A stretch of 41,997 bases of DNA. Origin: Saprospiraceae bacterium (lineage in GTDB: Bacteria; Bacteroidota; Bacteroidia; Chitinophagales; Saprospiraceae). The notes under the pieces were generated by a model, which saw only the letters and a list, made by a program, of their open reading frames with translations, was not told where the DNA came from and did no database searches. The first letter of the stretch is position 1. Each line of letters begins with the position of its first letter. Made by a program: the position numbers and the translations under genes. Shown here piece by piece: positions 1,445 through 24,700 of the stretch. The stretch lies in the NCBI GenBank assembly GCA_031373565.1, contig JANMMV010000697.1:1-41997 (forward strand), read 5' to 3'.

Positions 1445-1513
1445 TTTCAATATTAACTAATTTTTAAAAATAAGATATTCAAAAGGCGGGAAGACCACGT
1501 TCACTTTTCTTAA

Positions 1514-2215: not shown

Positions 2216-2353
2216 TGATAAATTATTTAATGAATTATAAAAAATGGTTTAATAAATCTAGATAGGTCGGGGTATGAATCTTGGTAATTATGCTTATATT
2301 TCTATATTTCATAATGCTAGATTCATCCAAAAATGAATATAGGGTTGATATGA

Positions 2354-3571: not shown

Positions 3572-3636
3572 TTTATTATTGTTTAGGATCTGAAAATATG
3601 TTAATTGATTATAATTTTTCAAAGTATGTTACATGT

Positions 3637-4875: not shown

Positions 4876-5077
4876 GATATAAAGGTATTTTCGAATTAAT
4901 GTTTGTAATTATATTGCAAAGGTGGAGTCTTTTGGATAGGTGTACAATAGCTAAATATAGACATATATAATTGGGTACACTGATAGCAATCAGATGCTTA
5001 GGCATATAAGTGTGCAACAACCCAAAGCAGGCATTCCTATGAAAAAATGACAAATAGCTTGTCTAGATAGTAGTAAA

Positions 5078-7093
5078 TTACTTGGATTTATAGCTAATAC
5101 TAGGTAGGGGAAGATTGCCCTTTATTTTAACCCCATGACCTAATGACGAAATAATTTCAACATTTCCGTTCATTTCAATAATCCTTTTCTTGATATTAAT
5201 TAGTCCATTTCCTTTCTTTGAGTTAGCGCTGTCGAAACCTACTCCATTATCGCTGATTTCAAAAGCAATAGTATTGTTGTCAACACCCATAGATATTTTC
5301 ATAGCAGTTGCATTACTATACTTAGCGATATTGTGTAAAGCTTCTTTGGAAACCAACAATAGATTTTTTCGCATTTTGTTTGAAATCATTATGACGTTTA
5401 CCATATCATCTATTTCAATATCAATGGATATAGTACTTTCCGCAAATGAATCCTTAGTATATTGAGTAATTCTGTTTTTTATGGAGATAGATTCTTGATC
5501 GACGCTCTTCAAACTCCATATTATATCTTCCATTCGCTCCATTAAGTCTCTACTATGCCCTGAAATCTTTTGAATCATGTCTTGGGCCTTCACTGGTTCA
5601 GAAGTGTAAAATTTGCTAGCTAGTTCAGAATAGATAGAAATACTGCTCAGGGTAGATCCAATATCGTCATGAAGGTCAGCGCTGATGCGACTTTGCTCTG
5701 CCATGATTGCATTTTGCTCATCAATTAACTTTCTTCTTTTCATTTGCCTTATCGTGATCATAAATGATGCGGCAATTAGCAATAGAATTATCGATAGCAA
5801 ATACTTTATAATCCTATCTTTATAATTGACTTCTCTAGCTAAGTTATTATCGTCTTCTAAACGACTTATTGTTTCATCTTTCTCTTTGGCTTTATAGGCA
5901 GCATCTAACTTGTTAGTCAATTCCGCAACATTTCGCCGATTCAAACTATCTTGTATAGTATTTCTGGTATATAGCGCTTCATAGGAGCCTTTGTAATCCT
6001 TCAAAGATGCTAAAATTTTAGCTTTAAGATGATAGGCTGATAACTTATTACTTAAATTGCTTCCTTTATGAAAGATACTCGAGTCAATGTAAATGCTAGC
6101 TAATCTAAGATCATTTTGTGCATAATAGCTCTTCGATAAGTCACCATAAAAAACGTCCAGCATGTACAACTCATTAGTAGATTTAGCAATACTGATGGTC
6201 TTCTTAAAATTTATTATTGCGTCATCATATTTCTTCTGCAAAAAACTAATGTTACCAAGTCCTTGATACGAATATAATAAGGCAGAAGGACTTTTTATGA
6301 TCTTGATCTGATCTTTGTAAATTCCTTCAGCTTTTTCCAGTTTTCCATCTTGAATGTACCATGTAGCGAGTGCTTGTAAGCATACATTTTTTTGAGTATC
6401 ATTGTTAAACTCTAGTGCATCGCAATATGCATTATCCAAATATTCTTTAGCTTTTGCTCGCTGACCTTGCCCTTCGAAACAATCGGCAATGATAAGTTTT
6501 ACGTAAACACTCAATTGTCTTATCTCAGCATAAGGCGAAATGGTATTTACGCTATCAGCTTTCATAAAATATCTTAAGGATTGTTCAGATTTCCCTATCG
6601 AGTGATTAATTCTACCTTTTATTTCATATATGTTACCTAAAAGCCTTTTATTAGTTATTAATCCGATCTTTTCTGTGGCCAGAGACGCATAATATGATGC
6701 CTTTTCAAATTTACCAGTGTGATGATATAGATTAGCCAGGAGACTACAAGTGTTGACCACATCATTCGAATTGTTGGGAACCGATTCATTTTTCAATGAC
6801 GCCAAAAGCCATGTTTCCGCTTCTGGTGTCTGGCGTTGAAACCAATAGTGTTCACCTATCATAAAAGCGTAACGCGCTGCTTTATCCTTGGTATTCATAG
6901 CACGATACAAGATTATTAAGCTATCTACACTCGCATTTTTATTCTGTTGAGCGTCAAATTCGGCTTTAAGAATAGATTTTGAATAGGATTTCAACTGAAA
7001 AGGACAAGCAAATATTAATAGTATCAAAAAATGAAAAATACATCGCTTACTAGCAGTAATTTTTGGCGATTGTTTCATATTCGAAAATGACAT
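5078..7093 (-). CDS. Sensor histidine kinase: signal/TM, extracytoplasmic TPR array, TM, HisKA_3 dimerisation domain, HATPase_c
   Basis: At least 8 TPR-like repeats, e.g. YQGLGNISFLQKKYDDAIINFKKTISIAK. TM segment IIKYLLSIILLLIAASFMITI. H-box ISADLHDDIGSTLS (NarL-partner type). N-box EALHNIAKYSNAT. G-boxes ISDNGVGFD and GNGLINIKKR. Confidence 0.85.
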   Translation of the reverse strand: MSFSNMKQSPKITASKRCIFHFLILLIFACPFQLKSYSKSILKAEFDAQQNKNASVDSLIILYRAMNTKDKAARYAFMIGEHYWFQRQTPEAETWLLASLKNESVPNNSNDVVNTCSLLANLYHHTGKFEKASYYASLATEKIGLITNKRLLGNIYEIKGRINHSIGKSEQSLRYFMKADSVNTISPYAEIRQLSVYVKLIIADCFEGQGQRAKAKEYLDNAYCDALEFNNDTQKNVCLQALATWYIQDGKLEKAEGIYKDQIKIIKSPSALLYSYQGLGNISFLQKKYDDAIINFKKTISIAKSTNELYMLDVFYGDLSKSYYAQNDLRLASIYIDSSIFHKGSNLSNKLSAYHLKAKILASLKDYKGSYEALYTRNTIQDSLNRRNVAELTNKLDAAYKAKEKDETISRLEDDNNLAREVNYKDRIIKYLLSIILLLIAASFMITIRQMKRRKLIDEQNAIMAEQSRISADLHDDIGSTLSSISIYSELASKFYTSEPVKAQDMIQKISGHSRDLMERMEDIIWSLKSVDQESISIKNRITQYTKDSFAESTISIDIEIDDMVNVIMISNKMRKNLLLVSKEALHNIAKYSNATAMKISMGVDNNTIAFEISDNGVGFDSANSKKGNGLINIKKRIIEMNGNVEIISSLGHGVKIKGNLPLPSISYKSK

Positions 7094-8037: not shown

Positions 8038-9063
8038 ATGTTTAAGTTTATCGTCGTTGCCGACATTTCAAAAGACAAAATCAATTTTGCTCTACGTTTT
8101 GTAAACGACTTTCCTCTTGAAAGAGAAGTAGAGAATACAACTTCTGCTCTCAACAAATTTATAAAGGAAGTTCAATCATTAGTTAAAAGCATAGCCAAAG
8201 AAAAGAAGGCTGAATATTCTCTTGAATTTATCATGGAGCATACGGGTATTTATGGCAATCTTCTTGTTGAATGCTTGGCTGGACATAAGGTAGCAATGTA
8301 TGTTGTTGCTGGACTCGAAATCAAAAATAGCACTGGGATCAGTCGCGGTAAAAATGACAAAATTGATGCTCGACGTATAGCAGATTATGGGGTAAGATTT
8401 GCCGACAAATTGAAGCCTTATACCTTGTGTGATCAGACACTATCTGAACTCAAGGGTTTGAATACTTTAAGAGCCCAAATGGTAAGGATCAAAGCACAAC
8501 TAACACAAGCTAAGGATGATAATAAAAAATTTCAAAGTAAAGAACTTCTAAAAAAGTCTGAAAAAATAAAAAAGCCAGTAGTGAATGAATTAGATGAAGC
8601 TATTGAGAAAATTGAAGTCCAAATGCTGGAGTTAATAAAAAGCGATGAGTCAATAAATGAAAATTATAAGATCGCTCAATCAGTCCCTGGGGTAGGTAAA
8701 ATTGTAGCAGTAGCATTCATATGTGCTACTAATAATTTTACAAAGTTTCATTCAGCCAAAGCATTAGGTAGTTATTGTGGCGTAGTACCATTTGGCAAGG
8801 AGTCAGGGAGTTATAAAGGAAAGGACAAGATTTCTCCTATTGCAAATAAAGCATTAAAAACGCTGCTGCATCTTGGAGCTGTTGCCAGTATTAGTGGCAA
8901 AAATGCTTTCGCAGTATATTACCAAAGAAAAGTGGCAGTGGATAAGAAGAATAAAATGCTCGCCCTTAACAATGTAAGGAATAAAATAGTAAAAACAATG
9001 TTTGCGTGCATCAAAAATAAAACCAAGTACATTGCGGATTATTCGTTTTCATTTGCAGCCTAA
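8038..9063 (+). CDS. IS110-family transposase/recombinase (DEDD RuvC-like N-domain + Transposase_20 C-domain)
   Basis: DEDD elements: VVADISKDKINFA, MEHTGIYGNLL and KNDKIDARRIADY. The C-domain has SVPGVGKIVAVAFICATNNFTKFHSAKALGSYCGVVPFGKESGSYKG, typical of IS110/IS1111 enzymes. Confidence 0.9.
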   Translation: MFKFIVVADISKDKINFALRFVNDFPLEREVENTTSALNKFIKEVQSLVKSIAKEKKAEYSLEFIMEHTGIYGNLLVECLAGHKVAMYVVAGLEIKNSTGISRGKNDKIDARRIADYGVRFADKLKPYTLCDQTLSELKGLNTLRAQMVRIKAQLTQAKDDNKKFQSKELLKKSEKIKKPVVNELDEAIEKIEVQMLELIKSDESINENYKIAQSVPGVGKIVAVAFICATNNFTKFHSAKALGSYCGVVPFGKESGSYKGKDKISPIANKALKTLLHLGAVASISGKNAFAVYYQRKVAVDKKNKMLALNNVRNKIVKTMFACIKNKTKYIADYSFSFAA

Positions 9064-9885: not shown

Positions 9886-11043
9886 TCACTTTATTCTATT
9901 GTATTTTTTTAACAAATCTATGACTAATTTATGCGGGAGACCATAAGCTTTGTTTCCATTAATGCCTTCCATAGTTTCAGCCGCAACCATAGCATTAATA
10001 ATGGCTTCTTCAACCGCCTGCACAGTCGCATCAAATAAAGGGTTGATTAAATCATTGGGCAATTCGGCCAATTTTGTGAAATTTTCTCGCTGAAAAGCGG
10101 ATGGGTTTGCAGTGGAAAATGCAATAAAAATATCACCGGAACCGTTTTCACCACGGCCTCCAACGATACCTATTCCCAATGGAACTCTTGTGGCAATTCT
10201 TTTAAGTTGATGGGGCAGTAAAGGAGCATCAGTAGCCACTACTACTATAATGGAACCATCTCCTAATTGATAAGATGGCGGAGCTTTAAATTCGTAGTTC
10301 ATCGTATCTTTTAATTCCTTTCCGATAGGAACACCGGCAATTGTAAAATTCTTTTTACCTCCAAAATTTGATTGTACCAAAACCCCAACCGTGTAAGTAG
10401 AGTCTTTAACTTTTACAACTCTAGAAGAAGTACCTGTGCCACCCTTAAAGCCCAAACACATCATTCCTGTGCCGCCACCCACATTTCCTTCTTGTAAATA
10501 TCCCGGTTTGGCACTGTCTAGTGCTTCATAAGCATTTTCTTCCTTTACATGGAAACCATAAATATCATTTAAAAAACCATCATAGGTTTCTGCTACCACA
10601 GGATAGGTGTACCAAAAGTCTTCATTGTACCAGCCCGTTTTCACATACCATTTTAACACGGCATCCCTTACCACACCCACGCTGTTGGTATTGGTTATCA
10701 TAATGGGGCCTTCTAGAAACCCTGATTCTGTTATCCACGTGGTGCCTGTCATTTCGCCGTTGCCATTTAACGAATACCAATTGGCAAAAACGGGGTTGTT
10801 GTTTCTGCCCCTCGGCAATATAGCTGTAACACCTGTTCTGATGGGTCCTTTACCTCTTACGTTTTGGCCTTGGCCTGCAATAATAGTACTATATCCAACT
10901 TCCACACCTTTGACATCGGTTATGGCATTATATTTACCAGTAGTACCGTTGAACGGAATTCCGATGTCTCGGGCCCTGGGATTTTGGGATAAAACGGCAA
11001 AAGGGATGAGGATAAAGAGCAGGAAAATGTTATTTCTTCTCAT
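9886..11043 (-). CDS. Secreted DmpA/BapA-type aminopeptidase (peptidase family S58 / P1)
   Basis: Start taken at MRRNNIFLLFILIPFAVLSQ (signal peptide); the ORF is open to 11103. Family hallmarks: ITDVKGVEVGYSTI, GVTAILP, GGGTGMMCLGFKGGTGTSSR and IIVVVATDAPL. Confidence 0.8.
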   Translation of the reverse strand: MRRNNIFLLFILIPFAVLSQNPRARDIGIPFNGTTGKYNAITDVKGVEVGYSTIIAGQGQNVRGKGPIRTGVTAILPRGRNNNPVFANWYSLNGNGEMTGTTWITESGFLEGPIMITNTNSVGVVRDAVLKWYVKTGWYNEDFWYTYPVVAETYDGFLNDIYGFHVKEENAYEALDSAKPGYLQEGNVGGGTGMMCLGFKGGTGTSSRVVKVKDSTYTVGVLVQSNFGGKKNFTIAGVPIGKELKDTMNYEFKAPPSYQLGDGSIIVVVATDAPLLPHQLKRIATRVPLGIGIVGGRGENGSGDIFIAFSTANPSAFQRENFTKLAELPNDLINPLFDATVQAVEEAIINAMVAAETMEGINGNKAYGLPHKLVIDLLKKYNRIK

Positions 11044-11121
11044 TTGGATAATTGATTTTTTGATTAAAAAATTGAAAAAATATTGATTGGTAGCAATGGG
11101 CAATTCAGTTAGGTTGATTTT

Positions 11122-11571
11122 TTAACTTCGTTTGATTAACGTTGAGTGAAGGTGTTTTACCTTCCACCTTTTTTTTTCTTTTGCTAAAATTGCGGTTTCC
11201 AGCCAATGCACCGTTGCTTGATTTCCGTCCTTGGTTATTGCTGAACTAAGCCGATACGTAACCCATGCCGTTTTTTTATCTGTTCTGGTTTTGATGAAAT
11301 CAAAAGTATTGGTACGCTTAAAATCTGTTGCCTTATTCATTGTGATTGCTTTCTTGATAAGCGAATCTAAATTCCATACCTGTCCATATTCGTACAAGGA
11401 GATATCAGTGGTAGAATAAGTTTTCAGGCTGACTGAATCATGGTTCGAGATAGCTTCAAAAAAATTCACCACAGTATATTTTGCATCTTGCTGGTCTTTG
11501 GTAGAAGTTTGCTGGGCTAGCAACAAAGTTGAAACAGAAGTAAGAATGATGAAAAGGGATTCTTTTTTCAT
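11122..11571 (-). CDS. Small secreted NTF2-fold protein (SnoaL/DUF4440-like)
   Basis: 149 aa with signal peptide MKKESLFIILTSVSTLLLAQ. The overall pattern (VVNFFEAISNHDSVSLKTY...AWVTYRLS...HWLETAILAKEKKRWKVKHLHST) is typical of the NTF2-like cone fold. Confidence 0.55.
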   Translation of the reverse strand: MKKESLFIILTSVSTLLLAQQTSTKDQQDAKYTVVNFFEAISNHDSVSLKTYSTTDISLYEYGQVWNLDSLIKKAITMNKATDFKRTNTFDFIKTRTDKKTAWVTYRLSSAITKDGNQATVHWLETAILAKEKKRWKVKHLHSTLIKRS

Positions 11572-11738
11572 TTTTGAATTTGTTTTTTCGTTAAAAAATT
11601 AGGTCTTTTCATCCCATATTTACTTGATAGTTGGCGCATCTACTACAATAATGAGCCGATTACATGTTTTATACCGCTCAATATGTAAATAGTGGCGAAT
11701 GTGCTTTATTTTACAAACAAATCTACCACCATTTTTCT

Positions 11739-13259
11739 TTATGAGCTTGTCTCTCTGTCTAATACTTCAAGAACTTTATTGTAATAATCAGTGGCACTTT
11801 CCATCGTTCTTCCGATACTTACTAGACCTAATTTGCCATATTGAGATAATGCACTAATCAGGTGGAACATAACTCCTTCTTCTTTTGAATTGTCATAGTG
11901 TAAGCCATTGTACATAGCAATATCTATAAGATCTAGCGGAGTCAAACCTTTATATTGATCGTTCTGTAGATTATCGGTTGCAAAATAAAATCTTTCCGTT
12001 CCGTCTGGTAGAATAAATGAGCCATTACTTTCGTCATATACACCATTAGTGAGAAACTGCAACATAAGGTATGGATGCGTAGTCCCCCCTTTTCTGAGAT
12101 TTATTTCAATAGCATAATGCGTCCAAACATCGTTTTTAAGCACACTCATAAAGTCAATTCCAAATCTACCCAAGACGCCCAGAGATGACATTTTGGTGGC
12201 TATTTCCCGGCAAATATTGCCCAATTCTACGGCATAATCTTTGTTAGCAGGAAATGTGGCTCCCAAAAATACCTGACCGCTTTCTCCGCCTAGACATTGA
12301 TCGTGGGTAGAGATGATGCATATTTCTCCCAATGGATCAATTCTGCATTGCACAGACGGTGATGTAAGGATCTCGCCGACAATAAATTCTTCGACAATAC
12401 CGCCAAAACTAATAAATTTCTTTAGATACTGGTCGTATCTAACATTTTCCGCTACAATTTTAGTTTTCAGGATGATATTTTCTCTTACCCACGACTCCAG
12501 TATCGATGGATCAGCAGGAGCTCCATCGTAGGAAAAGATGGCATTGCCATCACCCGAAAATCCATCATTAATTTTGATTACAGCCTTGTGGACGTGGGGG
12601 TTTTCAACTTTTAAATGATACAATGCTTTTATGATATCATCTTCATTTTCAAGGTATTCTATTCCTTTCGGGAGAAGGATGTTTAATTCCTTAAATAAAG
12701 TTCTGCAGCCGCTTTTTGTACCTAAATAATTTAAAGCGGGATCGCATCCATAAATCGGTAGATTTAAATTTAGCGCTAGTGTTTTTTCAAATTCTGTTAC
12801 ATTAAAAAATACAAGATGTGCTGGATATTCAGCAGGAATACTCTTTTTTATCCTCTGTATGAGTCTCGGACGTTTTAATATTTTTTCAGTTAATGATACA
12901 TTTCCTGCATCATAACAACTCAGTAATGTTAAACGTTTTCTGGCATGCTCAGCTATGATACCAGGTAGCATATGCAAATAATAGTCTATGATGATGGGTG
13001 CTATGGGAACACTAGTGATAAAGGTGAGAAAAGTTTCTGGCATTTTCAGTAATAACAACATACACAACATTCTCTCTTCGTAGTAATAATGACCTTTCAC
13101 CCTAGATAGAATTTGCTGGTCCAGTGTAAGGCTCGGAATTACTACAACGGCACGTCGCGCCAGCCTATCATTGAAAACTTCTGCATACTGTTCAGCAAGC
13201 GCATCCTGCAATTCTTCAAATCTGCGATCAGAAGCATTTGTTAAATTATATTCCATCAT
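11739..13259 (-). CDS. PGM1-like ATP-grasp protein (pre-ATP-grasp + ATP-grasp; putative carboxylate-amine/peptide ligase)
   Basis: VVVIPSLTLDQQIL...YEERMLCMLLLLKMP...IIIDYYLHMLPGIIAEHARKRLTLLS...GTKSGCRTLFKE matches, from memory, the conserved cyanobacterial/Bacteroidota family related to the pheganomycin peptide ligase PGM1. Confidence 0.65.
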   Translation of the reverse strand: MMEYNLTNASDRRFEELQDALAEQYAEVFNDRLARRAVVVIPSLTLDQQILSRVKGHYYYEERMLCMLLLLKMPETFLTFITSVPIAPIIIDYYLHMLPGIIAEHARKRLTLLSCYDAGNVSLTEKILKRPRLIQRIKKSIPAEYPAHLVFFNVTEFEKTLALNLNLPIYGCDPALNYLGTKSGCRTLFKELNILLPKGIEYLENEDDIIKALYHLKVENPHVHKAVIKINDGFSGDGNAIFSYDGAPADPSILESWVRENIILKTKIVAENVRYDQYLKKFISFGGIVEEFIVGEILTSPSVQCRIDPLGEICIISTHDQCLGGESGQVFLGATFPANKDYAVELGNICREIATKMSSLGVLGRFGIDFMSVLKNDVWTHYAIEINLRKGGTTHPYLMLQFLTNGVYDESNGSFILPDGTERFYFATDNLQNDQYKGLTPLDLIDIAMYNGLHYDNSKEEGVMFHLISALSQYGKLGLVSIGRTMESATDYYNKVLEVLDRETSS

Positions 13260-13798: not shown

Positions 13799-13830
13799 AA
13801 AAAGGAAGAGCCTGCTGCTAGACTCTTCCT
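13799..13830 (-). terminator. Rho-independent terminator of the 13961-14704 gene
   Basis: AGGAAGAG (13803-13810) pairs with CTCTTCCT (13823-13830) as an 8-bp stem with a 12-nt loop. A T5 run follows on the minus strand (A-run 13799-13803 on +). Confidence 0.55.
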
Positions 13831-13960: not shown

Positions 13961-14704
13961 TTATTTAGAACTTAAGTCCTTACGCATGAATAAAAGTTCG
14001 CTCCAGCTGTCGTTGATGTACTCGCTAGCATTGTCTAGGTACTCTTCCCATGATCCTTCGCCATTGACTGACTCATAGGTACCTTTGAATGGTTTGCGAT
14101 ATCCTACTGCTTTCTCTTTTAATCCTTGTTGAAATCTTCTGGTAAGTGTGTATTGTCCAGGACCTGATGCATTAGATGCATAAACGGCCATCGTTATGTT
14201 ATCAGCTTTCCAAGCTTTTCTCAATTCTTTAAGCATTTGTTCGACTTTATAGTCTTTGCCAAGCTTAGGATAGATATGCGTTATCTGGATTTTCTCCGTA
14301 AACGCACCCAGTGCTACCGTACTAAGAGAGTCTTGGTACACAGAATATCCAGCTGAACTCCTATCTGTCAAGTGGATAGCTACGTTTTTGTGCCAGTCCA
14401 TCATGTGCTCAGCCCCTAGATCGCCTCTCGTGTCTTCAGCAGCCCAGCTAGTAGGGCCCTCGGTGATATGATATCCACCTGCGTCGGGACCAGATTGGAT
14501 TTGGAATACTCGCCAATGATGTTCACCAGTGTGATACTTTTGGGCATGTGCTGCGAGTGCTTTTTCAAATTCCATCACTTTGTCCACTTTGGGAAAAATT
14601 CTCTGTGTGGAAATGACGTTTTTTACCTGTCCGAAGCCTATGATAGGAAGCATCAAAAGAATAAAAAGAAGGTTTTTGGTTTTTAAACTAAAATTGGTTT
14701 TCAT
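13961..14704 (-). CDS. Secreted hypothetical protein, two-lobed, possibly distantly related to the two paralogs upstream
   Basis: 247 aa with signal peptide MKTNFSLKTKNLLFILLMLPIIGFGQ. The layout is two halves of about 100 aa (beta strand, then an amphipathic helix such as KVMEFEKALAAHAQKY and YKVEQMLKELRKAWKA). I recognise no family. Confidence 0.7.
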   Translation of the reverse strand: MKTNFSLKTKNLLFILLMLPIIGFGQVKNVISTQRIFPKVDKVMEFEKALAAHAQKYHTGEHHWRVFQIQSGPDAGGYHITEGPTSWAAEDTRGDLGAEHMMDWHKNVAIHLTDRSSAGYSVYQDSLSTVALGAFTEKIQITHIYPKLGKDYKVEQMLKELRKAWKADNITMAVYASNASGPGQYTLTRRFQQGLKEKAVGYRKPFKGTYESVNGEGSWEEYLDNASEYINDSWSELLFMRKDLSSK

Positions 14705-14727
14705 AATAAAAGATTTTTTGGTGTAAT

Positions 14728-14757
14728 GCCTACTCTAATAAGGTTTTCGGCTTCGCC
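14728..14757 (-). repeat. Copy 1 of the ~28-nt intergenic motif
   Basis: The minus strand reads GGCGAAGCCGAAAACCTTATTAGAGTAGGC and ends 23 nt before the ATG at 14704. Confidence 0.5.
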
Positions 14758-14810
14758 TGGGTATTAAGAATAGTTGCTTGAGATAACACAAAGCATATAT
14801 TTTATATTTT

Positions 14811-15605
14811 TTAGTCTGTTATATCTACTAGCTCCCATACTTCTTGAGAAACCATATCTCTCAGTTCATTCAACTTAGTGGTAAAATTGGCGATATCATC
14901 CTTAGGATATACTTTTTTGTACTCATCTCCCATACCTGTTTTTCCACTTGCCCATGACAATGCCTGGTCTACGGTAGTAAAGGTAAAGCTAACTGAATAG
15001 TTACTTTCACTGATATTGGTAGCATAGGTTCGTTTCCATACATTAAATCCTTTTAGTTCCCCTGCTTTTATACACTCTTCAAGCACTGGCTTCAAAGTTT
15101 CCAATAATTTTTCATAAGCTGCACCGCTGCCCTTTTTGACATCTAAAAGATTTATTTGCACATATTCGCCTGGAATAATCTTAGCTCCAACACCCCACTT
15201 ATAGGTATAAAGATCGGTGGCTACAGTAGTTCTTACATTGTTCAATGATGTAAAAAAGTCAGATGCTTCCTTCACACTCATTGCTTTGAAACCTGTATCC
15301 CAAGTACCTTCTGCTTTCATTTCGATACCGCTAGGAAATACTGAAAGCGTAGCATAATTAAAATCCATACTGCTACCTCGTGGATATGTTCTACGGTATA
15401 GCTGCCACGAATTGATGGTCTTATTAGCAACTCTTGCATCTGCAAGCTTTCTTGATGTTTTCATGTCGATCAGAAAACTCTCATTCATATTGGGTAAAGT
15501 TTTGATATAATTTACTTCACCATAAGGGCCTTGTGCTTGACACTCGTTGAAAGAAAACAATGTAGTTAAGGCAACTACCATGATTGTTAAAGAAAATGTC
15601 TTCAT
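14811..15605 (-). CDS. Secreted protein of unknown function, paralog A
   Basis: Start taken at MKTFSLTIMVVALTTLFSFNECQAQ. The track ORF extends to 15764, but that extension reads through the conserved operator repeats. It aligns end to end with the 15898-16707 product, e.g. IKTLPNMNESFLIDMKTS.KLA..RVANK.INSWQLYRR and the C-terminal DEYKKV.PKDDIA......ELRD.VSQ...ELVDITD. Confidence 0.8.
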   Translation of the reverse strand: MKTFSLTIMVVALTTLFSFNECQAQGPYGEVNYIKTLPNMNESFLIDMKTSRKLADARVANKTINSWQLYRRTYPRGSSMDFNYATLSVFPSGIEMKAEGTWDTGFKAMSVKEASDFFTSLNNVRTTVATDLYTYKWGVGAKIIPGEYVQINLLDVKKGSGAAYEKLLETLKPVLEECIKAGELKGFNVWKRTYATNISESNYSVSFTFTTVDQALSWASGKTGMGDEYKKVYPKDDIANFTTKLNELRDMVSQEVWELVDITD

Positions 15606-15674
15606 TGTAAAAGATTTTTTTTGTTGGTTAAATAATGATTGTTTATTAAGTTTATTTTTGAGTAATTGATAATA

Positions 15675-15770
15675 CAAAGGTATGGGCAGAACAAGGATTG
15701 GAGATAGTAGAAATCTCGCAAAATATAGGAGAAATCTCGCATTCTTACCGTAAATTCTGAGCATTTTCGG
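15675..15770 (-). promoter_or_regulatory. Promoter/operator module A (leftward -7 box plus phased direct repeats)
   Basis: CAAAGGTA at 15675-15682 is TACCTTTG (TAnnTTTG) on the minus strand. GAAATCTCGCA occurs at 15710-15720 and again at 15731-15741, 21 nt start to start. A related AAATTCTGAGCA ends at 15763. Confidence 0.6.
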
Positions 15771-15832
15771 TTAATTTCGATGTTGATGATAGTTTTTAGC
15801 CTTTACAGAATAAAAGAACGTAAAAAGCTAAC

Positions 15833-15875
15833 AAAAAAAAACTGTCAGGTTTCACCTTATGGCAAAACCTGACAG
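15833..15875 (-). terminator. Strong rho-independent terminator of the 15898-16707 gene
   Basis: CTGTCAGGTTT (15842-15852) pairs with AAACCTGACAG (15865-15875) as an 11-bp stem. It is followed on the minus strand by a T9 run (A-run 15833-15841 on +). Confidence 0.8.
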
Positions 15876-15897
15876 CTAACAAAACATGGTATGATTC

Positions 15898-16707
15898 TTA
15901 ATCCGTAATATCCACCAATTCATAAAGCCCTTGCGATACTACATCTCTCAGTTCACTAAACTTGGCACTCCAAATAGCTATGTCATCCTTAGGAAATACT
16001 TTTTTGTACTCATCTCTCACATTAGTTTTTCCACTTGCCCATGATAATGCTTGGTCTAAGGTAGCAAAGCTAAAACTAACAAAATAATCAATTTCTCCAT
16101 TGACATTAGTCTTATAGGTGCGTTCCCAAACATTGAATCCTTTTAGCTTTCCAGCTTTTATAGCCTCTTCAAGCACAAGCTTATAAGATTCCAATTGTTT
16201 TTCATAGTCTGCACCCTTTCCAGTTTTTACATTGTTACTGTTTATTTGTACGTATTCGCCAGGTAGCATCTTAGATCCAACACCCATTTTGTAAGTTATA
16301 CAATCATTGGCTACTACTGTCCTTGTATTGCCAACGGATGTGTAGAAATCAGCAATATCTTTTGCACTCATTCCTTTGATGACAGCATCATTGGCGCCTT
16401 CTGCTTTCATTTCTACTCCACTTGGATATACCGCAAGGGTAAAATAATTATGATCCATACTGCTACCCGTTGGCATTGCTCTGCGATATAGTTGCCAAGA
16501 ATTGATGTTCTTATTCGCAACTCTTCCATTGGCCAATTTCTTTGATGTTTTCATGTCTATCAGAAAACTCTCATTCATGTTTGGTAAAGTTTTTATAAAA
16601 CTTACTATACCATAAGGGGCAGGTGCTGTTTGGGCTTTGATAATAGCCGATGTTGAAAATAAGGCAATGATGATTACCAATGTTGAAAGAAATTTGTTAA
16701 TTTTCAT
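15898..16707 (-). CDS. Secreted protein of unknown function, paralog B
   Basis: 269 aa with signal peptide MKINKFLSTLVIIIALFSTSAIIKAQ. By eye roughly two thirds identical to paralog A over its full length. Confidence 0.85.
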   Translation of the reverse strand: MKINKFLSTLVIIIALFSTSAIIKAQTAPAPYGIVSFIKTLPNMNESFLIDMKTSKKLANGRVANKNINSWQLYRRAMPTGSSMDHNYFTLAVYPSGVEMKAEGANDAVIKGMSAKDIADFYTSVGNTRTVVANDCITYKMGVGSKMLPGEYVQINSNNVKTGKGADYEKQLESYKLVLEEAIKAGKLKGFNVWERTYKTNVNGEIDYFVSFSFATLDQALSWASGKTNVRDEYKKVFPKDDIAIWSAKFSELRDVVSQGLYELVDITD

Positions 16708-16774: not shown

Positions 16775-16891
16775 CAAAGATAAAGGCGAGACCTTCCACG
16801 TAGCTAAGACGTTTCTCGCAAAAAACCATACATTTCTCGCATTCAAACCGTAATTTCTGAGCATATACCGTAAATTCTGAGCATTTTGCGG
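16775..16891 (-). promoter_or_regulatory. Promoter/operator module B, between paralog B and hybrid sensor 1
   Basis: CAAAGATA at 16775-16782 is TATCTTTG on the minus strand. CGTTTCTCGCA is at 16810-16820 and CATTTCTCGCA at 16831-16841 (21-nt phase). The 20-nt unit ACCGTAA(T/A)TTCTGAGCAT is tandemly duplicated at 16847-16886. Confidence 0.6.
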
Positions 16892-16956: not shown

Positions 16957-19900
16957 ATGATCTTTCGTCCCACATATCTCAAATCCCTTGCTCGTTGTAT
17001 TACCATATTCACAATGTTGATCAGCGGTACTACATTCGGTCAGTTCAAATACGAAACCCTATCCACTGCCCAGGGTCTCTCCCAAGGGTATATCTGGGAC
17101 ATCTTACAGTGTAAGGATGGTTTCCTCTGGATGACTACCAAAGCTGGACTCAATCGCTATGACGGTTACTCATTCAAAGTATACAGCCACGACGCTTTTG
17201 ACCCATATTCTATTACGAGCAACAATATTTTATTTCTTTATGAAGATAGTAAAGGTCGCATTTGGATCGGCAGTGATCATGGACTCAATATTTTCAACAA
17301 AAAAACAGAAAGATTTTACAAGCTGTATCACGATGCTAAAAATCCAAATAGCCTTAGCGGCAATGTAGCAGATGATCAAATCACAGAACTCTCTGACGGT
17401 CGTTTTTTAATCAATACGTCTAATATAACCTTTGATATAGTCACCCTTCCAGAAGATTTTTTCGAGGATGAAGGTGGTATAAAAATTGAACACATCAATA
17501 AACCCAAAAATTCCTTTAACGCTGCTAATTACTATAATGAAGTAACATACACCGATTCAAAAAATATTACATGGTACAAATGTGATAATAACCTATACCG
17601 TTTTAATGCGAAAACTGACCAATTCGAATTGCAAAAAGTAGACAACGTGTCGGGTAACCAAATTATAAAAAATGAAGATGGTAGTGTTTGGTTTGGTGAT
17701 GAATATATAAGTTTGTTTGACGGCATCAATGTTTACCCAACATTTACCAAGCCTATGTTTAACGGTCATACAGGATATGTTTTAACGGAAGACAATGGAA
17801 GGTTGTGGCGGTCTAATAACAATCTTGGTTTCCTTGAGATTTTTGATATCTCTACGTGGCAAAAAGGCAAACCAATCGACCCTGAAAAGCATATCATTGC
17901 TAGCGATCAAAATGTTTATTGTAACAAAATATTTAAAGACAGAACCGGCTTGGTTTGGTTAGGTCTCAATGGCTTTGGCGTGCGGAAATATTCGTTTGAA
18001 TCCGAAAAATTCAACCACATCGCTCCAAATAAAAGTATCAGAAAAATCATTGCAGATCCCCAAAACAACCTGCATGTACATGCATGGTACGGACATTTTA
18101 AGATCGATACGAAAGGTAATTTGACAGACAATATCTGGGAGTTTAAACGCGGACTATCACTAGATTATTTTATTGCCAAAACTGGGGATCTATGGTTGAC
18201 TGAAAGAACGGATGTCAATTCAAAAACGATTACTTCATTACAACAAATCAACCCTACCACAAAACTAAGCAAAATCTATACATTTGATCTCGAAGGTAAT
18301 TACGACTATCCACAACATATTATTGAAGATCAGAATGGTCGATTGTGGTTTGGAGGATTGAATGGATATTATTTAGTTTTTGATCCAAAAAGTGGTACTT
18401 ACAAAGAATACAACACCAAAAAAAATACTCCCACAACGACGCAATATAATGACCATAATGGTATTGTATGGATGGGTACTATGGAAGGATTTGCAAAAAT
18501 TGAGTCTAAAAATATTTTAACTACGGCTCCTAAAATTACATGGTATAGCAATGACCCAAATAATAAAACCTCGCTTAATAGTAATAATATAAGCACCTTT
18601 CTTGACGATCCTGTAGATCATGATTTATTGTGGATAGGTACCAAAGGCGGTGGCCTCAATCTCATGGAAAAATCATCAGGCAAGATCAGACATATTACTG
18701 TGAATCAAGGCTTGTGTGACAATACCGTTTATGGCATTTTGGATGACGAAAAAGGCAATATCTGGGGAAGTACCAATAATGGCCTTTTCTGTATATTGAA
18801 TAGTGCCAATCGCAAAAGCAATTTTGAAATCCGACACTTTACTGAAGCAGCAGGACTTCAAGCGGCTGAGTTCAATACAGATGCCTATGCTAAGCTACCT
18901 AACGGCCACCTGGCCTTCGGAGGCATCAATGGAATTAATGTTTTCGACCCAAAAGAAATTTTGATTGATACCATTATGCCCAATATATTTATTACAAAAC
19001 TCATCGTGGGCAATCAAGTTATAAAACCCTTTGATAATAGTAATATCCTTTTCCAAGCCATCGAATTTACACCATCCATTACCTTGAATCATATTCAGGA
19101 TGTATTTACCATCGAGTTTTCGTCTTTGGATTTCAGAGCGCCTGAACAAATAAAATACAGGTACAAACTAGATGGTATTGACGAAGATTGGTTGGAAATA
19201 GGCAAAAGAAGAAGTGTCACTTATTCCCACTTGCCAGCTGGTTCTTACACGTTCAAAGTACAAGGCAGCAATAGCTTAGGAATATGGAATGATAAAGTCA
19301 GAGCATTAAAGATCATAATTTTGCCTCCATGGTATGCATCATGGTATGCCTATTTATTTTATGTGATATTACTTGGCTTAGGTATTCGAGCATATTACAG
19401 ATATAAACTCGAGCAGAACAAAATGGCAACTCAACTGCAATTTGAACAAAACGAAAACCATCGTGTCAAAGAACTCGATAAGGTCAAAACGGATCTATAC
19501 ACTAATATCACTCATGAATTTAGAACGCCACTAACAGTTATCCTAGGTATGGTGCAGCACATAAGGCGTTCCGCCGCCGATCACTTAGACAACGGTTTGG
19601 ACATGATCGAACGAAACGGCAATAATCTTTTGCGGTTGGTAAATGAAATGTTGGATTTATCAAAGCTGGAAGCGGGCAAAATGGAATTAAATCTTACACA
19701 AGGTGATGTGATTAATTTTATCAGATATATTGTAGAGTCATTCCATTCGGTGGCAGAAAGTCAAGACAAAAAAATGCATTATCTCTCTTCAATCGACACG
19801 ATGTACGCACAATATGATCAAGAGAAAATACGACAGATCGTATCCAATTTACTATCCAATGCATTGAAATTTACATCCAAAAAAGGAGACATTTATCTAT

Positions 19901-21066
19901 CCATTTCCCAAGAAAACAAGAATCAGCTCTGTATCAAAGTCAAAGATACAGGCCGTGGTATACCTGAAAGCCAGCAACACCATATTTTTGATAGATTCTA
20001 CCAAGCTGACAGTACACACACCCGACACGCTGAAGGTACTGGCATAGGACTTGCATTGACTAAAGAACTGGTACAACTCATGGCCGGACACATTTCAGTC
20101 AAAAGCCCACCAACAGGATCAAAAAAAGGTACAGAGTTTACAGTCATCTTACCACTAGAGATCATCACAGATTATATCGAAGATGAAACCATCCAAAAGG
20201 CTTTTGTAGTTAAATCAAAGATAGACGATAACGATCCATTTAGGCATATTGATTTTCAAAACCAAACTAACCCAGATAAAGAACTGATCCTATTGGTAGA
20301 AGATAACGCTGACGTAGTGGCATACACTGCTAGCTGTCTTCAAGATTACCGATTGGCAGTGGGTAAAGACGGTCAGGAAGGTTTGGATATAGCACGTGAT
20401 CTAGTTCCTGATCTAATCATTACAGATGTCATGATGCCATTTATGGATGGTTTTGAAATGACACGAAACCTGCGTATTGATGTGCGTACCAGCCATATTC
20501 CTATTATCATGCTTACAGCCAAAGCGGATATGGACTCTAAACTCGAAGGCATAGATTATGGTGCAGAAGTTTATCTCGAAAAACCATTTAATGTCGACGA
20601 ACTTAAGTTGCGAGTGCGCAAATTACTAGACCAAAGGATGATCTTGCAAAATGCCTATGCTTCCAAGTTGGGGCTACAAACTTTGTCAAAAGAAATTACC
20701 AATAACGAAGAAAAGACTAATTATGATGATATTGTATTGCCTCAGGTAGAAAATGCATTTGTTAAAAAGGTAACATTAGAGATAGAAGCGCACCTATCCG
20801 ATGAAAGTTTCAGTGTAGAGCAACTTGCTAGAAGTCTATTTATGTCTTATTCACAATTGCAACGGAAACTCAATGCGCTCATTGGCATGCCACCCAATCA
20901 ATTTATACGACACTTGCGCCTCCAAAAGTCTAAAGAGCTCTTAAGTACAACGGAGGATACGATCCTTAACATTTCGATGAATTGCGGTTTCAGCGATCCG
21001 AGTTACTTCGCCAAAGTTTTCAAACAAGAATTTGGCATCACACCCCAGGATTGGAGAAATGGGTGA
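16957..21066 (+). CDS. Hybrid two-component system sensor/regulator 1: periplasmic beta-propeller repeats + Y_Y_Y, TM, HisKA, HATPase_c, REC, AraC-type HTH
   Basis: Y_Y_Y region YRYKLDGIDEDWLEIGKRRSVTYSHLPAGSYTFKVQG. TM segment WYAYLFYVILLGLGI. H-box ITHEFRTPLTVILGM. REC motifs LLVEDNADV...IITDVMMPFMDGFEM...MLTAKA. AraC HTH CGFSDPSYFAKVFKQEFGITPQDW. Confidence 0.9.
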   Translation: MIFRPTYLKSLARCITIFTMLISGTTFGQFKYETLSTAQGLSQGYIWDILQCKDGFLWMTTKAGLNRYDGYSFKVYSHDAFDPYSITSNNILFLYEDSKGRIWIGSDHGLNIFNKKTERFYKLYHDAKNPNSLSGNVADDQITELSDGRFLINTSNITFDIVTLPEDFFEDEGGIKIEHINKPKNSFNAANYYNEVTYTDSKNITWYKCDNNLYRFNAKTDQFELQKVDNVSGNQIIKNEDGSVWFGDEYISLFDGINVYPTFTKPMFNGHTGYVLTEDNGRLWRSNNNLGFLEIFDISTWQKGKPIDPEKHIIASDQNVYCNKIFKDRTGLVWLGLNGFGVRKYSFESEKFNHIAPNKSIRKIIADPQNNLHVHAWYGHFKIDTKGNLTDNIWEFKRGLSLDYFIAKTGDLWLTERTDVNSKTITSLQQINPTTKLSKIYTFDLEGNYDYPQHIIEDQNGRLWFGGLNGYYLVFDPKSGTYKEYNTKKNTPTTTQYNDHNGIVWMGTMEGFAKIESKNILTTAPKITWYSNDPNNKTSLNSNNISTFLDDPVDHDLLWIGTKGGGLNLMEKSSGKIRHITVNQGLCDNTVYGILDDEKGNIWGSTNNGLFCILNSANRKSNFEIRHFTEAAGLQAAEFNTDAYAKLPNGHLAFGGINGINVFDPKEILIDTIMPNIFITKLIVGNQVIKPFDNSNILFQAIEFTPSITLNHIQDVFTIEFSSLDFRAPEQIKYRYKLDGIDEDWLEIGKRRSVTYSHLPAGSYTFKVQGSNSLGIWNDKVRALKIIILPPWYASWYAYLFYVILLGLGIRAYYRYKLEQNKMATQLQFEQNENHRVKELDKVKTDLYTNITHEFRTPLTVILGMVQHIRRSAADHLDNGLDMIERNGNNLLRLVNEMLDLSKLEAGKMELNLTQGDVINFIRYIVESFHSVAESQDKKMHYLSSIDTMYAQYDQEKIRQIVSNLLSNALKFTSKKGDIYLSISQENKNQLCIKVKDTGRGIPESQQHHIFDRFYQADSTHTRHAEGTGIGLALTKELVQLMAGHISVKSPPTGSKKGTEFTVILPLEIITDYIEDETIQKAFVVKSKIDDNDPFRHIDFQNQTNPDKELILLVEDNADVVAYTASCLQDYRLAVGKDGQEGLDIARDLVPDLIITDVMMPFMDGFEMTRNLRIDVRTSHIPIIMLTAKADMDSKLEGIDYGAEVYLEKPFNVDELKLRVRKLLDQRMILQNAYASKLGLQTLSKEITNNEEKTNYDDIVLPQVENAFVKKVTLEIEAHLSDESFSVEQLARSLFMSYSQLQRKLNALIGMPPNQFIRHLRLQKSKELLSTTEDTILNISMNCGFSDPSYFAKVFKQEFGITPQDWRNG

Positions 21067-21477
21067 TAGGTAAAGCATGTAGGATAGAATGTTTAGGGTT
21101 TGTAATATCTGAAGTAGGTACTAGAATGATTTCCTACAGGAAATAACTCCACGGCTGACTGGTATAGAAAGGTTTTGTGAATAGCAAATCCATTTTAGAA
21201 AGTACCTATTTTGTGAAGGGTGTAATAGGCATACTTCTGCCAAAGCCAATGCTGTTGTTGAATAAAAAATAAGGGACTGTTAATATTGATAAACCACTGA
21301 CAATAATGGCATTAGCATCTTTTGATAATCAAGAAAATAACGAAGGTAAATAGTTGTGCAATTCAGCAAGGGCAACACCTACTAATAATCCGTCCAATCG
21401 GCAATATTTAGGATCATAGATTGTTTGTATCCATAACGCCCTGTTTTCTATTCCGGAACTTTGCTGGATGTGTTACG

Positions 21478-21507
21478 TCTACTCTAACAAGGTTTTCGGC
21501 TTTCACT
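21478..21507 (-). repeat. Copy 2 of the ~28-nt intergenic motif, here with no gene downstream
   Basis: The minus strand reads GTGAAAGCCGAAAACCTTGTTAGAGTAGAC, 25 of 30 positions identical to copy 1. Confidence 0.5.
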
Positions 21508-21564
21508 ATGATTGATGAAAACTTGAAATTTTTCTGATCCAATTATTTGATACAATGGATGTTG

Positions 21565-21659
21565 CAAAGTAAAGGTCAAAACAAGGGTGGGAGATAGGAG
21601 AAATATCGTATAATATAGGCGAAATCTCGCTTTTTACAGTAAAATCTGATCGTTTTCAG
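21565..21659 (-). promoter_or_regulatory. Promoter/operator module C (orphan), upstream of hybrid sensor 2
   Basis: CAAAGTAA at 21565-21572 is TTACTTTG on the minus strand, so the TA of the -7 box is altered. GAAATATCGTA is at 21600-21610 and GAAATCTCGCT at 21621-21631 (21-nt phase). ACAGTAAAATCTGATCGTTTTCAG is at 21636-21659. The box-to-repeat spacing is 35 nt, the same as in modules A and B. Confidence 0.55.
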
Positions 21660-21723
21660 ATCTCAGTATGAAAAAGACAAACTTTAAACTAAGACTTTGG
21701 TGTCCTTTCTCTATTTTTACCCT

Positions 21724-24700
21724 ATGAATATTTTCCCAAAGAATATCAGCTCTTTTCGATTCATTTGGTTGGCACTATGGATACTATGTAGTCATATGAG
21801 TTATGGCCAATTGAAGTATGAGACACTCACTACTTCAGATGGATTGTCGCAAGGTATGGTATTTGATATTTTACAAGATAAGGAAGGATTTATTTGGATA
21901 GCCACTAAAGATGGATTAAACAGGTATGATGGCTATGAGTTTAAAGTATTTTCAAATGACCCATATAATGATCAAAGTCTAAGTAGCAATACTATTTCAA
22001 GATTATTTGAAGATAGCAAAGGTAGGATTTGGGCTACTACTGAAAATGCTGGCTTAAATATCTATGATAAAATTAAAGGTGTTTTTTACAGGTTGCAAAA
22101 TAGTTTGACCAACACTAATAGTATATCTGGAAATAATATTAGAGCGATAGAAGAATTGCCAGATGGCAGGATGTTGATAGCGACAGTTGGTCGTGGAATA
22201 AATATTGTTACTTTAACAGAAGAGTTTTTTAGTAAAGGTTCTTCCCCGCTTATTATTAAACTTAACATGCCTAATAATAGTGAAGTATATGGCATTGGTA
22301 AAGATAAAAATGATAGAGTCGTCATTGGAGCTATGGATGGCACGACATATGAACTGGACTATAAGAATTTGAGCTTCATCCCGATTAACAATGGAAAATT
22401 ATATAATAATGGCTACCTAACAGAGGAGGGAAGTGTCATCATCAATAACAACCTATTTTTGGATGATGGCAATAGCATAATGCCTTTATTTGATACAGAT
22501 AAATTACCAGAAGGTAATATTATATTCAGACCAAATGAGACCCTTTGGGATTTACATCATAGGGAACAACATTTTTACGATATCAGTAGGTGGGAAAATG
22601 GTATACCCCTAAGTTGGAAAGAAAAACTTCCTATTGAAAAAAATACAAGAATCATTTATCCATTCATTATTGATAGGTCAGGGATTTTGTGGGCTGGCAC
22701 CGTCGGCTATGGTCTTAGGAAATACAAGATCAAAAAAAGCATATTTAGAACTTTAGCTAGAGGAAATAGCATCAGACTGATCAAACCTTATTCTGAAAGT
22801 GAAATATATTGTGTCGACTACGGATATCCTTGGTTGAAGTTAAAAGCGGATAATGTAGTGGATGTCAATGCATTTAGTAAAATTCCATCGGTGAGCCAGA
22901 TAGACAATATTCTTGTTTCAAAAACAAAAGATATTTACATAAAAAGCGACAAAAAAGGTTATTTTAAATATACACCTACGACCAATACACTTGTAGAACT
23001 TCCAAATATAAATGCAAAGCAGACATTCGGTAAAAAACAACCATTTATAGAGGATAAACGTGCTTCTGTGTGGTTTCCTGGCTTAGATGGTCAGATTACT
23101 TTGTTTGATCCAATCACGCAAAAATCAGATAGTTTTAATATAAATCAAAGTGGTGACAAAATCATCATTACGGCGCTGCTCGAAGATAAAAATGAAACTT
23201 TTTGGATTGGTACGGAAACTGGTTTTGCAAAAGTTAATTTAAAACGAGATAATATTTCATCTTCTGTTGTAAGGTGGTACAATAACGACTTTAAAAACAG
23301 AAATTCACTTAGCTATGATCATGTGACTTCTTTTTTAGATGATCCAAATGAACCTCAAACATATTTATGGATATCTACAAAAGGTGGTGGAATTAATCGT
23401 TTAAATAAATTGACTGGGGATTTCTTGCACCTTTCCACTAAAGATGGCTTACCAGATAATGTGGTTTATGGCTTGCTTGATGACCAATCAGGAAATATTT
23501 GGGGTAGCACCAATAAAGGAATTTTTTGCACGCTTATTCAAAAAAATAAGCCTAACCTTGAAATTAGTTTTCGTAATTTTACGAAGAGAGAAGAACTTCA
23601 GGATGATGAATTTAATACAGGTGCATTTGCAAAACTACCCAACGGAAACTTAGCTTTTGGAGGTGTCAATGGATTGAACGTTTTTAATCCTAAAGATGTA
23701 TTACAATCTAGTTTTATACCAAATGTCTTTATTACAAAAATTCTTGTAGAAAATAATATTGTCTTACCAAATGATAATACAGGTGTTCTTAGTGAAAATA
23801 TTGAAAAAGCGAAATCCATTACATTAACCCATTTACAAGACATCCTCACTCTTGAATTTGCATCATTAGATTTTTCTAACCCTTTACAAAACAAATATCG
23901 TTATCAGCTCATAGGTATAGATAAGGACTGGATCCTAAGTAACACTCGTCGTTCTGCAACATATTTACATCTTCCTGAAGGAAATTATGTTTTCAAAGTG
24001 CAAGGTAGTAACAGTGAAGGTATTTGGAGCGAAAATGTAGCAGCTTTGCAAATCAATATTTTGCCGCCATGGTGGAAGACTTGGTGGGCTTATCTCTCAT
24101 ATACCTTACTATTTGGCTTTTTGATAAGAACGTATCTACAATATAGGTTAAATCAATCCAAAATAGAGTCGCAATTGATCGTTGAACAAAATGAAGCTAG
24201 GCGAATCAAAGAACTGGATAATATAAAAACGCAGCTTTACACCAATATCACCCATGAATTCCGTACGCCATTGACTGTAATCTTGGGTATGGTGCAGCAA
24301 ATAAAAGGCGCACCAAAAGAACATTTAGAGAACGGTCTCGAGATGATCGATCGTAATGGTAGAAACTTACTAGATCTTGTTAACGAGATGCTCGATCTGT
24401 CAAAACTCGAAGCAGGCAAAATGGAGTTACATATGGTGGGTGGCGATGTCATCCATTTTTTGAGATATATCGTAGAGTCATTTCACTCGATGGCCGAAAG
24501 CCAAAACAAAAAAATGCATTATCTTTCTTCATTAGATACTTTGCACACAGCTTATGATACGGAAAAATTACGCCAAATTCTTTCCAATCTTCTGTCAAAT
24601 GCGTTAAAATTTACACCAGAAAAAGGAGATATTTACATTTCAATTGGTACTGTAGATCGGCATAACGCTGAGAATAAAAAAATACTTGTCATCAAGATCA

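Follow-up and report, generated by a model that had tools for sequence, protein, structure and literature searches.

Hybrid two-component system (HTCS) sensors have been treated almost wholly as glycan sensors that drive polysaccharide utilization loci (PULs), and in Bacteroides the sensors that combine propeller, Y_Y_Y and AraC-type domains normally lie beside SusC/SusD pairs and carbohydrate-active enzymes (CAZymes). The sites of the Bacteroides HTCS predicted by comparative genomics are direct repeats about 21 bp apart, and HTCS without SusC/SusD are already known, namely 11 of the 36 in B. thetaiotaomicron (PMC3878776). Here we describe a locus with a different gene content in a 41,997-nucleotide stretch of DNA from a Saprospiraceae bacterium (contig JANMMV010000697.1 of assembly GCA_031373565.1, positions 1 to 41,997 of the forward strand; hereafter, the window). 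This locus encodes two hybrid sensors, HTCS1 and HTCS2, on the plus strand and three small proteins on the minus strand, famA1 (15898-16707, 269 aa), famA2 (14811-15605, 264 aa) and famB (13961-14704, 247 aa). The analysis gives good support to two conclusions: that the three genes encode members of one undescribed superfamily of exported tandem alpha+beta-barrel proteins, and that members of this superfamily are conserved promoter-proximal partners of HTCS, or of pairs of a TPR histidine kinase and a LytTR regulator (TPR-HK/LytTR), in non-PUL loci. The explanation that best joins these observations, and to which we assign a reasonable but far from overwhelming likelihood, is that these exported double-lobe proteins are promoter-proximal, probably direct targets of the adjacent hybrid sensors and act on a small non-glycan compound.

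An undescribed superfamily of exported proteins

The famA1 and famA2 proteins are 65% identical from end to end and share the C-terminal tail ELVDITD, in agreement with the preliminary description of this DNA, which had called them full-length paralogs. BLASTP finds no similarity between famB and famA, and neither does hhalign when narrow alignments are compared. The relationship emerges once the famB profile is widened with representatives at 50% identity (alignment A3): this broad profile aligns with famA with an hhalign probability of 96% (E 3e-9), and the broad famB hidden Markov model matches 45 of 48 famA open reading frames (ORFs) in hmmsearch. Judging from this comparison of profiles, the only kind in which the connection is visible, famB is a remote homolog of famA.

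There are 94 famA homologs, none of which has an informative name; three bear the JGI label "heme-degrading monooxygenase HmoA." The homologs of famB number 2093 (90%-identity clusters) at about 65% identity, and the famB profile reaches 337 clusters at 50% identity; conservation is high, with about 65% identity across families and 78 invariant columns in 31 sequences. The hosts are Saprospiraceae, Chitinophagaceae, Ferruginibacter and Cytophagaceae metagenome-assembled genomes (MAGs), some of which, judged by the isolate names, come from activated sludge. The closest orthologs of famA2 (89-93% identity) are found in the Saprospiraceae MAGs L008, L009, and L030, and the nearest loci also belong to Saprospiraceae (HTCS1 88-89% and famA2 92-93% identical). 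For none of the three window proteins is there a Pfam or NCBIfam match at E<=1, and both single-sequence and profile searches of PDB return nothing significant, i.e., profile searches do not place these proteins in a well-characterized family. Literature searches returned no paper on this protein family, this type of locus or HTCS in Saprospiraceae. In some relatives, members of the superfamily form arrays: L029 (10001-17688) encodes one famA, two distant famA paralogs (26-30% identity) and one 47% identical famB, and L044 (9076-11805) encodes famB, famA and a second, 47% identical famB.

All three proteins start with a K-rich n-region followed by a hydrophobic core and small residues at -3/-1, with the predicted cleavage between IKA and Q in famA1, CQA and Q in famA2, and GFG and Q in famB. 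The Gln that follows the predicted cleavage site (Q26) does not vary among the famA proteins, and its conservation in the famB clade is 93%. This arrangement, a predicted cleavable signal peptide with Gln at +1, fits the Q-rule for Bacteroidetes substrates of signal peptidase I (SPase-I; PMC10653852). No lipobox is present in the three proteins, and no C-terminal domain of the type IX secretion system (T9SS) is detected in them with Pfam. Most likely, then, all three, which the preliminary description had already called secreted, are exported via Sec and SPase-I, presumably to the periplasm.

Two ferredoxin-like lobes in each protein

The available structural evidence supports a model in which two ferredoxin-like lobes, both of the ABM/NIPSNAP/Dabb type, are fused in each of these proteins. 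This support comes from Foldseek matches of famA1, matches of the famB C-lobe, and weak Pfam signals in relatives. The AlphaFold2 (AF2) model of famA1 (pLDDT 83, pTM 0.77) has the topology beta-alpha-beta-beta-alpha..beta, twice. In a Foldseek search with this model, the tandem ABM-like proteins 2pgc, 3f44, and 3mcs come first, and further matches include chlorite dismutase/HemQ (coproheme decarboxylase), an anthrone-oxidase-like protein and sulfur oxygenase reductase; the tandem alpha+beta barrels are matched with E values from 5e-10 to 2e-8 and a TM-score of up to 0.75 on the target. The AF2 model of famB is poor (pLDDT 51 overall) due to a shallow alignment, but its C-lobe (residues 136-240, pLDDT 60-86) is usable and matches single ABM/NIPSNAP domains in the structure search with moderate confidence. 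In a few relatives, sub-threshold Pfam matches are obtained to ABM (3.6e-5), NIPSNAP (1.8e-3), DUF6614 (7e-5), Dabb (0.045) and also rhaM; no curated ABM, NIPSNAP or Dabb model scores above the gathering threshold for the three window proteins. The preliminary description had offered a tandem ferredoxin-like fold of the Dabb/NIPSNAP type as a guess, which the structure searches with famA1 and famB support.

The internal duplication is also apparent from comparison of the lobes with hhalign, which aligns the famB N-lobe with the famB C-lobe at 96.9% (E 1.7e-10), the famA N-lobe with the famA C-lobe at 87.7% (E 3.4e-6), and the famB C-lobe with the famA C-lobe at 96.3%. It is the first of these alignments that suggests a ferredoxin-like fold for the N-lobe of famB.

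The two families differ in their conserved residues. In the famB clade, all conserved His residues are located in the N-lobe, where the positions retained are H53 (92%), H58 (91%), H100 (89%), D91 (84%), D103 (82%), S128 (92%), G72 (100%) and G76 (91%). The H53-x4-H58 pair lies in a predicted helix; there is no conserved Cys, and Asn and Trp positions are not conserved clade-wide. The famA proteins have no invariant His or Cys, and retain Trp, Arg, Lys, and Glu at similar places in both lobes. The His/Asp cluster of famB (H53, H58, D91, H100, and D103) could bind a metal. We speculate that the substrate or ligand of all three proteins is a small non-glycan compound in the periplasm, with famB being a metal-dependent enzyme, and famA either a cofactor-less enzyme or a binder.

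Association with hybrid sensors

The HTCS1 (16957-21066) and HTCS2 (21697-25836) genes each encode 1370 aa, and Pfam detects in both the same domain set, i.e., propeller, Y_Y_Y, HisKA, HATPase, receiver and AraC HTH. HTCS1 is divergent from famA1, whereas HTCS2 is of the ortholog type that elsewhere is divergent from famB; for the latter gene, either TTG at 21697 or ATG at 21724 may be the start, and tblastn alignments of orthologs mostly begin past residue 10-40. For famA2, an alternative ORF of 317 aa, with an ATG at 15764, that lies inside an operator repeat, is an artefact; the homologs and the conserved leader support the start at 15605 already given in the preliminary description.

Among 34 famA loci in the genome collection that include at least 1.5 kb of upstream sequence, an HTCS is found within 4 kb upstream in 17, a TPR histidine kinase with a LytTR regulator in 8, and neither in the remaining 9. 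The corresponding count for famB covers 66 informative loci with at least 700 bp upstream (the metagenome scan used the narrow famB alignment); a divergent HTCS is present in 37 of these, with its N-terminus at a median distance of 269 bp upstream, and the TPR-HK/LytTR pair in 17, to which ORF clustering adds a few more. The divergent sensor arrangement recurs across HTCS that are 35-89% identical, and no other HTCS gene is encoded anywhere in 758 kb of famB-locus flanks. Thus, with respect to the question raised in the preliminary description, whether the orthologs always sit beside hybrid sensors, linkage is observed in many genomes but is not universal, given that in others the place of the HTCS is taken by TPR-HK/LytTR or no sensor is found.

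The sensors themselves differ between the two families. In 32 of 34 cases, the HTCS linked to famB resembles HTCS2 (about 58%) more than HTCS1, whereas the HTCS linked to famA in Saprospiraceae, which are encoded upstream of famA operons, are HTCS1 orthologs (72-89% identical). The locus in the window therefore looks like a fusion of two modules that are found apart elsewhere, one consisting of HTCS1 and famA, and the other of HTCS2 and famB.

Predicted operators and transcription units

The region upstream of famA1 (16775-16884, minus strand) contains four tandem repeats with a 20-22 bp period followed by a -7 box, an arrangement that is conserved in relatives. The repeats are ATGCTCAGAATTTACGGT (16884-16867), a copy of the latter with one mismatch (16864-16847), ATGCGAGAAATGTATGG (16842-16826) and TGCGAGAAACGTCTTAG (16820-16804); the -7 box is TATCTTTG (16782-16775), and a conserved leader comes after it. 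In the famA2 promoter region (15675-15764, minus strand), with repeats at 15764-15747, 15742-15725, and 15720-15704, a third copy of the 18-mer (15764-15747) is followed by two GCGAGATTTCNCCTAT boxes 21 bp apart and by the -7 box TACCTTTG (15682-15675). Three occurrences of the 18-mer ATGCTCAGAATTTACGGT exist in the window, all of them at the two famA promoters, compared to 0.02 expected by chance. Both -7 boxes have the form TAnnTTTG, which is the -7 element of Bacteroidota. Bacteroidota promoters use elements other than those of the sigma-70 type, and a sigma-70 promoter scan of the window was uninformative (50 sites vs. 45 expected).

Seven other genomes (L003, L006, L008, L009, L012, L030, and L034) have kept the repeat array, the -7 box and the leader, irrespective of which gene comes first. 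In 1.47 Mb of relative loci, tandem operator pairs are found only upstream of famA operons and in the famA orientation, and they persist in L005/L136 and L028, where no HTCS is adjacent. Loci of the HTCS2 type have a different conserved pair upstream of famB, GAATTaATCC..CAATTTGTCC, with a 20 bp spacing, plus a third site. The 20-21 bp period of the repeats at the famA1 and famA2 promoters fits the direct-repeat pattern predicted for HTCS in Bacteroides. The preliminary description, having noted the adjacency, considered that the sensors seem wired to these proteins; the conserved HTCS-type repeats at the famA1 and famA2 promoters strengthen this proposal, with sensor binding at these sites being predicted from sequence.

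Strong intrinsic terminators are predicted after famA1 (15840-15877, minus strand; a 17-bp stem followed by a U-run, -26.1 kcal/mol, z -8.4) and after famB (13804-13829, minus strand; a hairpin followed by UUUUU, -18.1 kcal/mol, z -5.2), and the famA2-famB spacer is unstructured upon folding. From the position of the terminators and the unstructured spacer, we infer that famA1 is monocistronic, and famA2 and famB form a bicistronic unit. The famA2 promoter and leader, together with the first 10 residues of the signal peptide (MKTFSLTIMV; 15600-15764 in the window), are shared with unrelated DUF4440-like genes that are the first after the HTCS1 operator in L006, L009, and L012. It seems that a promoter-leader-signal cassette is reused in front of different mature proteins.

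Under the mechanism that we propose, a periplasmic signal would activate the propeller/Y_Y_Y sensor, phosphotransfer would free the AraC-type domain, and this domain would bind the tandem repeats, with their 20-21 bp period, just upstream of weak Bacteroidota-type promoters. The expected outcome is direct activation of famA1 and of the famA2-famB unit.

An orphan promoter copy and a possible history of the locus

An 80-nt promoter module found at the promoters of both famA2 and famA1 has a third copy, located on the minus strand immediately upstream of HTCS2. This third copy (21554-21633) is 79% identical to the one at famA2; a copy of the famB leader comes after it, but no gene. This orphan promoter region (21470-21651, minus strand) contains repeats at 21651-21636, 21630-21615, and 21609-21594, a -7-like box at 21573-21565, and then the leader copy. 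The actual leader segment of famB (14721-14776, minus strand; repeat family D5) is 73% identical to 21470-21525, and blastn aligns the two at 96% identity over 24 nt. The orphan promoter is divergent from HTCS2 and points antisense into the 3' side of HTCS1. We sought a remnant of a famB pseudogene in the gap between HTCS1 and HTCS2, and found none. In the simplest reading, the HTCS1-famA1-famA2 block came to lie between the promoter divergent from HTCS2 and famB, so that the orphan copy would be the scar of a block insertion or recombination.

Cargo in the window and in related loci

SusC, SusD, and glycoside hydrolase domains are absent from the window ORFs of at least 150 aa that were scanned with Pfam, a set that excludes 10607-11086, 41034-41870 and nearly all shorter ORFs; no TonB-dependent receptor or heme-uptake gene was found among the scanned ORFs either. 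The two hybrid sensors are the only ORFs above 700 aa in the window, with no other ORF of TonB-receptor size, and the Rfam and tRNA scans were both empty. The view of the preliminary description that the three proteins are the only visible cargo of the sensor locus, with no SusC/SusD or glycoside hydrolases, thus holds for the scanned ORFs of the window but does not generalize, because in relatives famB heads long operons. The Bacteroides framework in which it placed the locus does not apply literally, the nearest loci being those of Saprospiraceae.

In relatives, famB is the constant first gene and the gene sets behind it vary. The latter include an MFS transporter (Acatn/AmpG-like), RidA, M19, M20, and S9 peptidases, an amino-acid permease, an amidohydrolase, a beta-lactamase-fold protein, DUF885, DUF3500, DUF2306, an intradiol-dioxygenase-like protein, DUF4440/SnoaL, lipocalin and cupin proteins, as well as arrays of membrane-anchored paralogs. 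In Saprospiraceae, famA2-type genes precede an unannotated gene of 430 aa and a giant T9SS LamG protein. The picture is mixed, with peptide and amino-acid metabolism being the commonest annotated theme among the genes after famB; on this ground, we suggest that the wider context might be a pathway that takes up and breaks down peptides or compounds derived from amino acids. In L066, L073, L080, and L081, famB is followed by arrays of 4-7 paralogs in tandem, each of ~250 aa, membrane-anchored and unannotated. These paralogs (c23) were considered as candidate members of the superfamily and rejected because the famA and famB profiles do not detect them.

Downstream of famB on the same strand of the window is an operator-less cluster (9886-13259, minus strand) that encodes an ATP-grasp ligase with IQCH/PGM1_C domains and a weak BesA-like match, a DUF4440/SnoaL protein (11122-11571) and an S58 (DmpA-type) aminopeptidase. 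The S58 and DUF4440 genes also accompany famB and famA in L021. An IS110-family transposase gene (8038-9063, plus strand) lies ~800 bp from the S58 gene, and IS110 copies also flank the HTCS in L137. Another cluster (590-7093, minus strand) consists of a TPR/HisKA_3 histidine kinase (5078-7093) and a LuxR-type response regulator (590-1228) that bracket three ORFs without a Pfam match (1514-4875); the two-component type represented here is not that of the TPR-HK/LytTR pairs found with famB in other loci. Finally, a run of DUF58/VWA/BatA-type genes (37132-41202, minus strand) resembles the Bacteroides aerotolerance (Bat) operon and is unrelated to the subject of this work.

Alternative interpretations

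Several observations weigh against the interpretation of these genes as direct sensor targets that act on a small non-glycan compound. About 18-26% of the loci have no nearby sensor, and many metagenomic loci may stem from related species, which would inflate the linkage counts. The assignment of operators at the famA and famB promoters is derived from conservation. The model of the famB N-lobe is too poor to show the His/Asp cluster as a single site. The cargo after famB is heterogeneous and extends to dioxygenase-like genes and giant T9SS proteins, which makes for a weak peptide theme. In L048, the far side of the HTCS is occupied by a SusD-like gene and by galactose genes. The latter case fits the possibility that adjacency is incidental, i.e., that the sensors regulate distant glycan loci and the three genes are unrelated neighbors, which also has a precedent in those Bacteroides HTCS that have no local targets (PMC3878776). 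Such incidental adjacency appears highly improbable to us given the recurrence of the divergent arrangement across HTCS of widely different identity, the conserved repeat arrays in the shared intergenic region that are oriented toward famA and famB, and the lack of any other HTCS in the 758 kb of flanking DNA. Participation of these proteins in heme or tetrapyrrole handling, as exported relatives of the IsdG/HmoA heme oxygenases or of chlorite dismutase/HemQ, is brought up by the HmoA name of 3 of the 94 famA homologs and by the presence of chlorite dismutase and coproheme decarboxylase among the Foldseek matches of famA1. However, famA has no obvious axial ligand since it lacks an invariant His or Cys, the window proteins have no ABM or Cld match in Pfam, the TM-scores to Cld/HemQ are 0.43-0.50, and the scanned ORFs of the window include no TonB-dependent receptor or heme-uptake gene, so that heme handling, too, has very little to recommend it. 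Both these alternatives are poorly supported.

The main rival to direct regulation of cargo is a co-sensor role, in which famB, and perhaps famA, would be a periplasmic accessory that binds or generates the signal and docks on the periplasmic domain of the sensor kinase, by analogy with LuxP/LuxQ and TorT/TorS. Consistent with such a role, famB is the constant neighbor of two unrelated types of sensors (propeller/Y_Y_Y HTCS and TPR-HK with LytTR) while the genes behind it vary widely, and its sequence conservation is very high; furthermore, the TPR kinase has an N-terminal signal-like segment, with the TPR located before the membrane segment, and on this sequence reading could face the periplasm. 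Against it, famB sits downstream of an operator-bearing promoter as ordinary cargo does, its His/Asp cluster looks more catalytic than adaptor-like, its fold is unrelated to those of the known periplasmic binding-protein co-sensors, and famA occurs in multi-paralog arrays such as that of L029. We therefore regard the co-sensor role as conceivable but rather unlikely, and favor direct activation of exported cargo by the adjacent sensors. A broader scheme can be envisaged, albeit with low confidence: famB-type proteins might be the defining part of a non-glycan "utilization locus" in environmental Bacteroidota, in the role that SusC/SusD play in PULs, as periplasmic metalloproteins that generate or present the inducer, possibly a peptide- or amino-acid-derived one, to both sensor families. 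If this scheme is true, propeller-type HTCS sensing extends beyond carbohydrates.

Relationship to known systems

The sensors in these loci appear to control an output other than the sugar-harvesting machinery, and this alternative output is recurrent and conserved. It is seen in Saprospiraceae and Chitinophagaceae, two families that abound in activated sludge and soil. Should the ligand prove not to be a glycan, this class of sensors would respond to a wider range of signals than is known so far. The superfamily, for which there is no curated model, and its directly testable predicted operators would also provide an entry point to many "hypothetical" genes of environmental Bacteroidota.

The closest regulatory counterparts are the HTCS-controlled PULs of Bacteroides, with which the locus shares the sensor architecture, the target operon divergent from the regulator and the direct repeats about 21 bp apart. 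It differs from them in that the scanned ORFs include no SusC/SusD or CAZymes, the hallmark first gene encodes a tandem alpha+beta-barrel protein that is probably periplasmic, and the hosts are Saprospiraceae and Chitinophagaceae; the HTCS ligand here is probably not a glycan. LuxP/LuxQ and TorT/TorS are similar in that a small exported protein is encoded beside a sensor kinase. However, LuxP and TorT adopt periplasmic-binding-protein folds, whereas the proteins described here are alpha+beta barrels that become co-sensor candidates by their gene position.

With regard to the proteins themselves, the dimeric alpha+beta-barrel superfamily of ABM (PF03992), NIPSNAP (PF07978) and Dabb (PF07876) has the same ferredoxin-like lobe as famA and famB, duplicated in one chain as it is in 2pgc, 3f44, and 3mcs, which are the closest structural matches and have no known function themselves. 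The window proteins are distinguished by the lack of sequence-level membership in these families, by export and by other sets of conserved residues; the ABM-family enzymes known to us are cytoplasmic. The IsdG/HmoA heme oxygenases have a conserved Asn-Trp-His catalytic triad, with the His being the ligand of the heme iron. Neither family matches this pattern, given that famA has no invariant His and the Asn and Trp positions of famB are not conserved clade-wide. The chlorite dismutase/HemQ/DyP group is not matched either, because its proximal His lies in the C-lobe, where famA has no invariant His and where none of the conserved His residues of the famB clade are found, in addition to the lack of a Pfam match and the low TM-scores noted above. 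In sulfur oxygenase reductase, a mononuclear Fe is bound by His86, His90, and Glu114 (PMC7398979). This enzyme also has an essential Cys. The ferredoxin-like barrel of this enzyme is among the structural matches of famA1 (TMq 0.56-0.57), and its ligands bring to mind the His pair of famB together with D91, H100, and D103. The motifs differ, being H-x3-H-x23-E in the reductase and H53-x4-H58 in famB, which furthermore has no conserved Cys and is exported, and famA has neither; the reductase is also set apart by its 24-mer assembly, of which there is no sign in famA or famB. We treat this likeness as a lead only.

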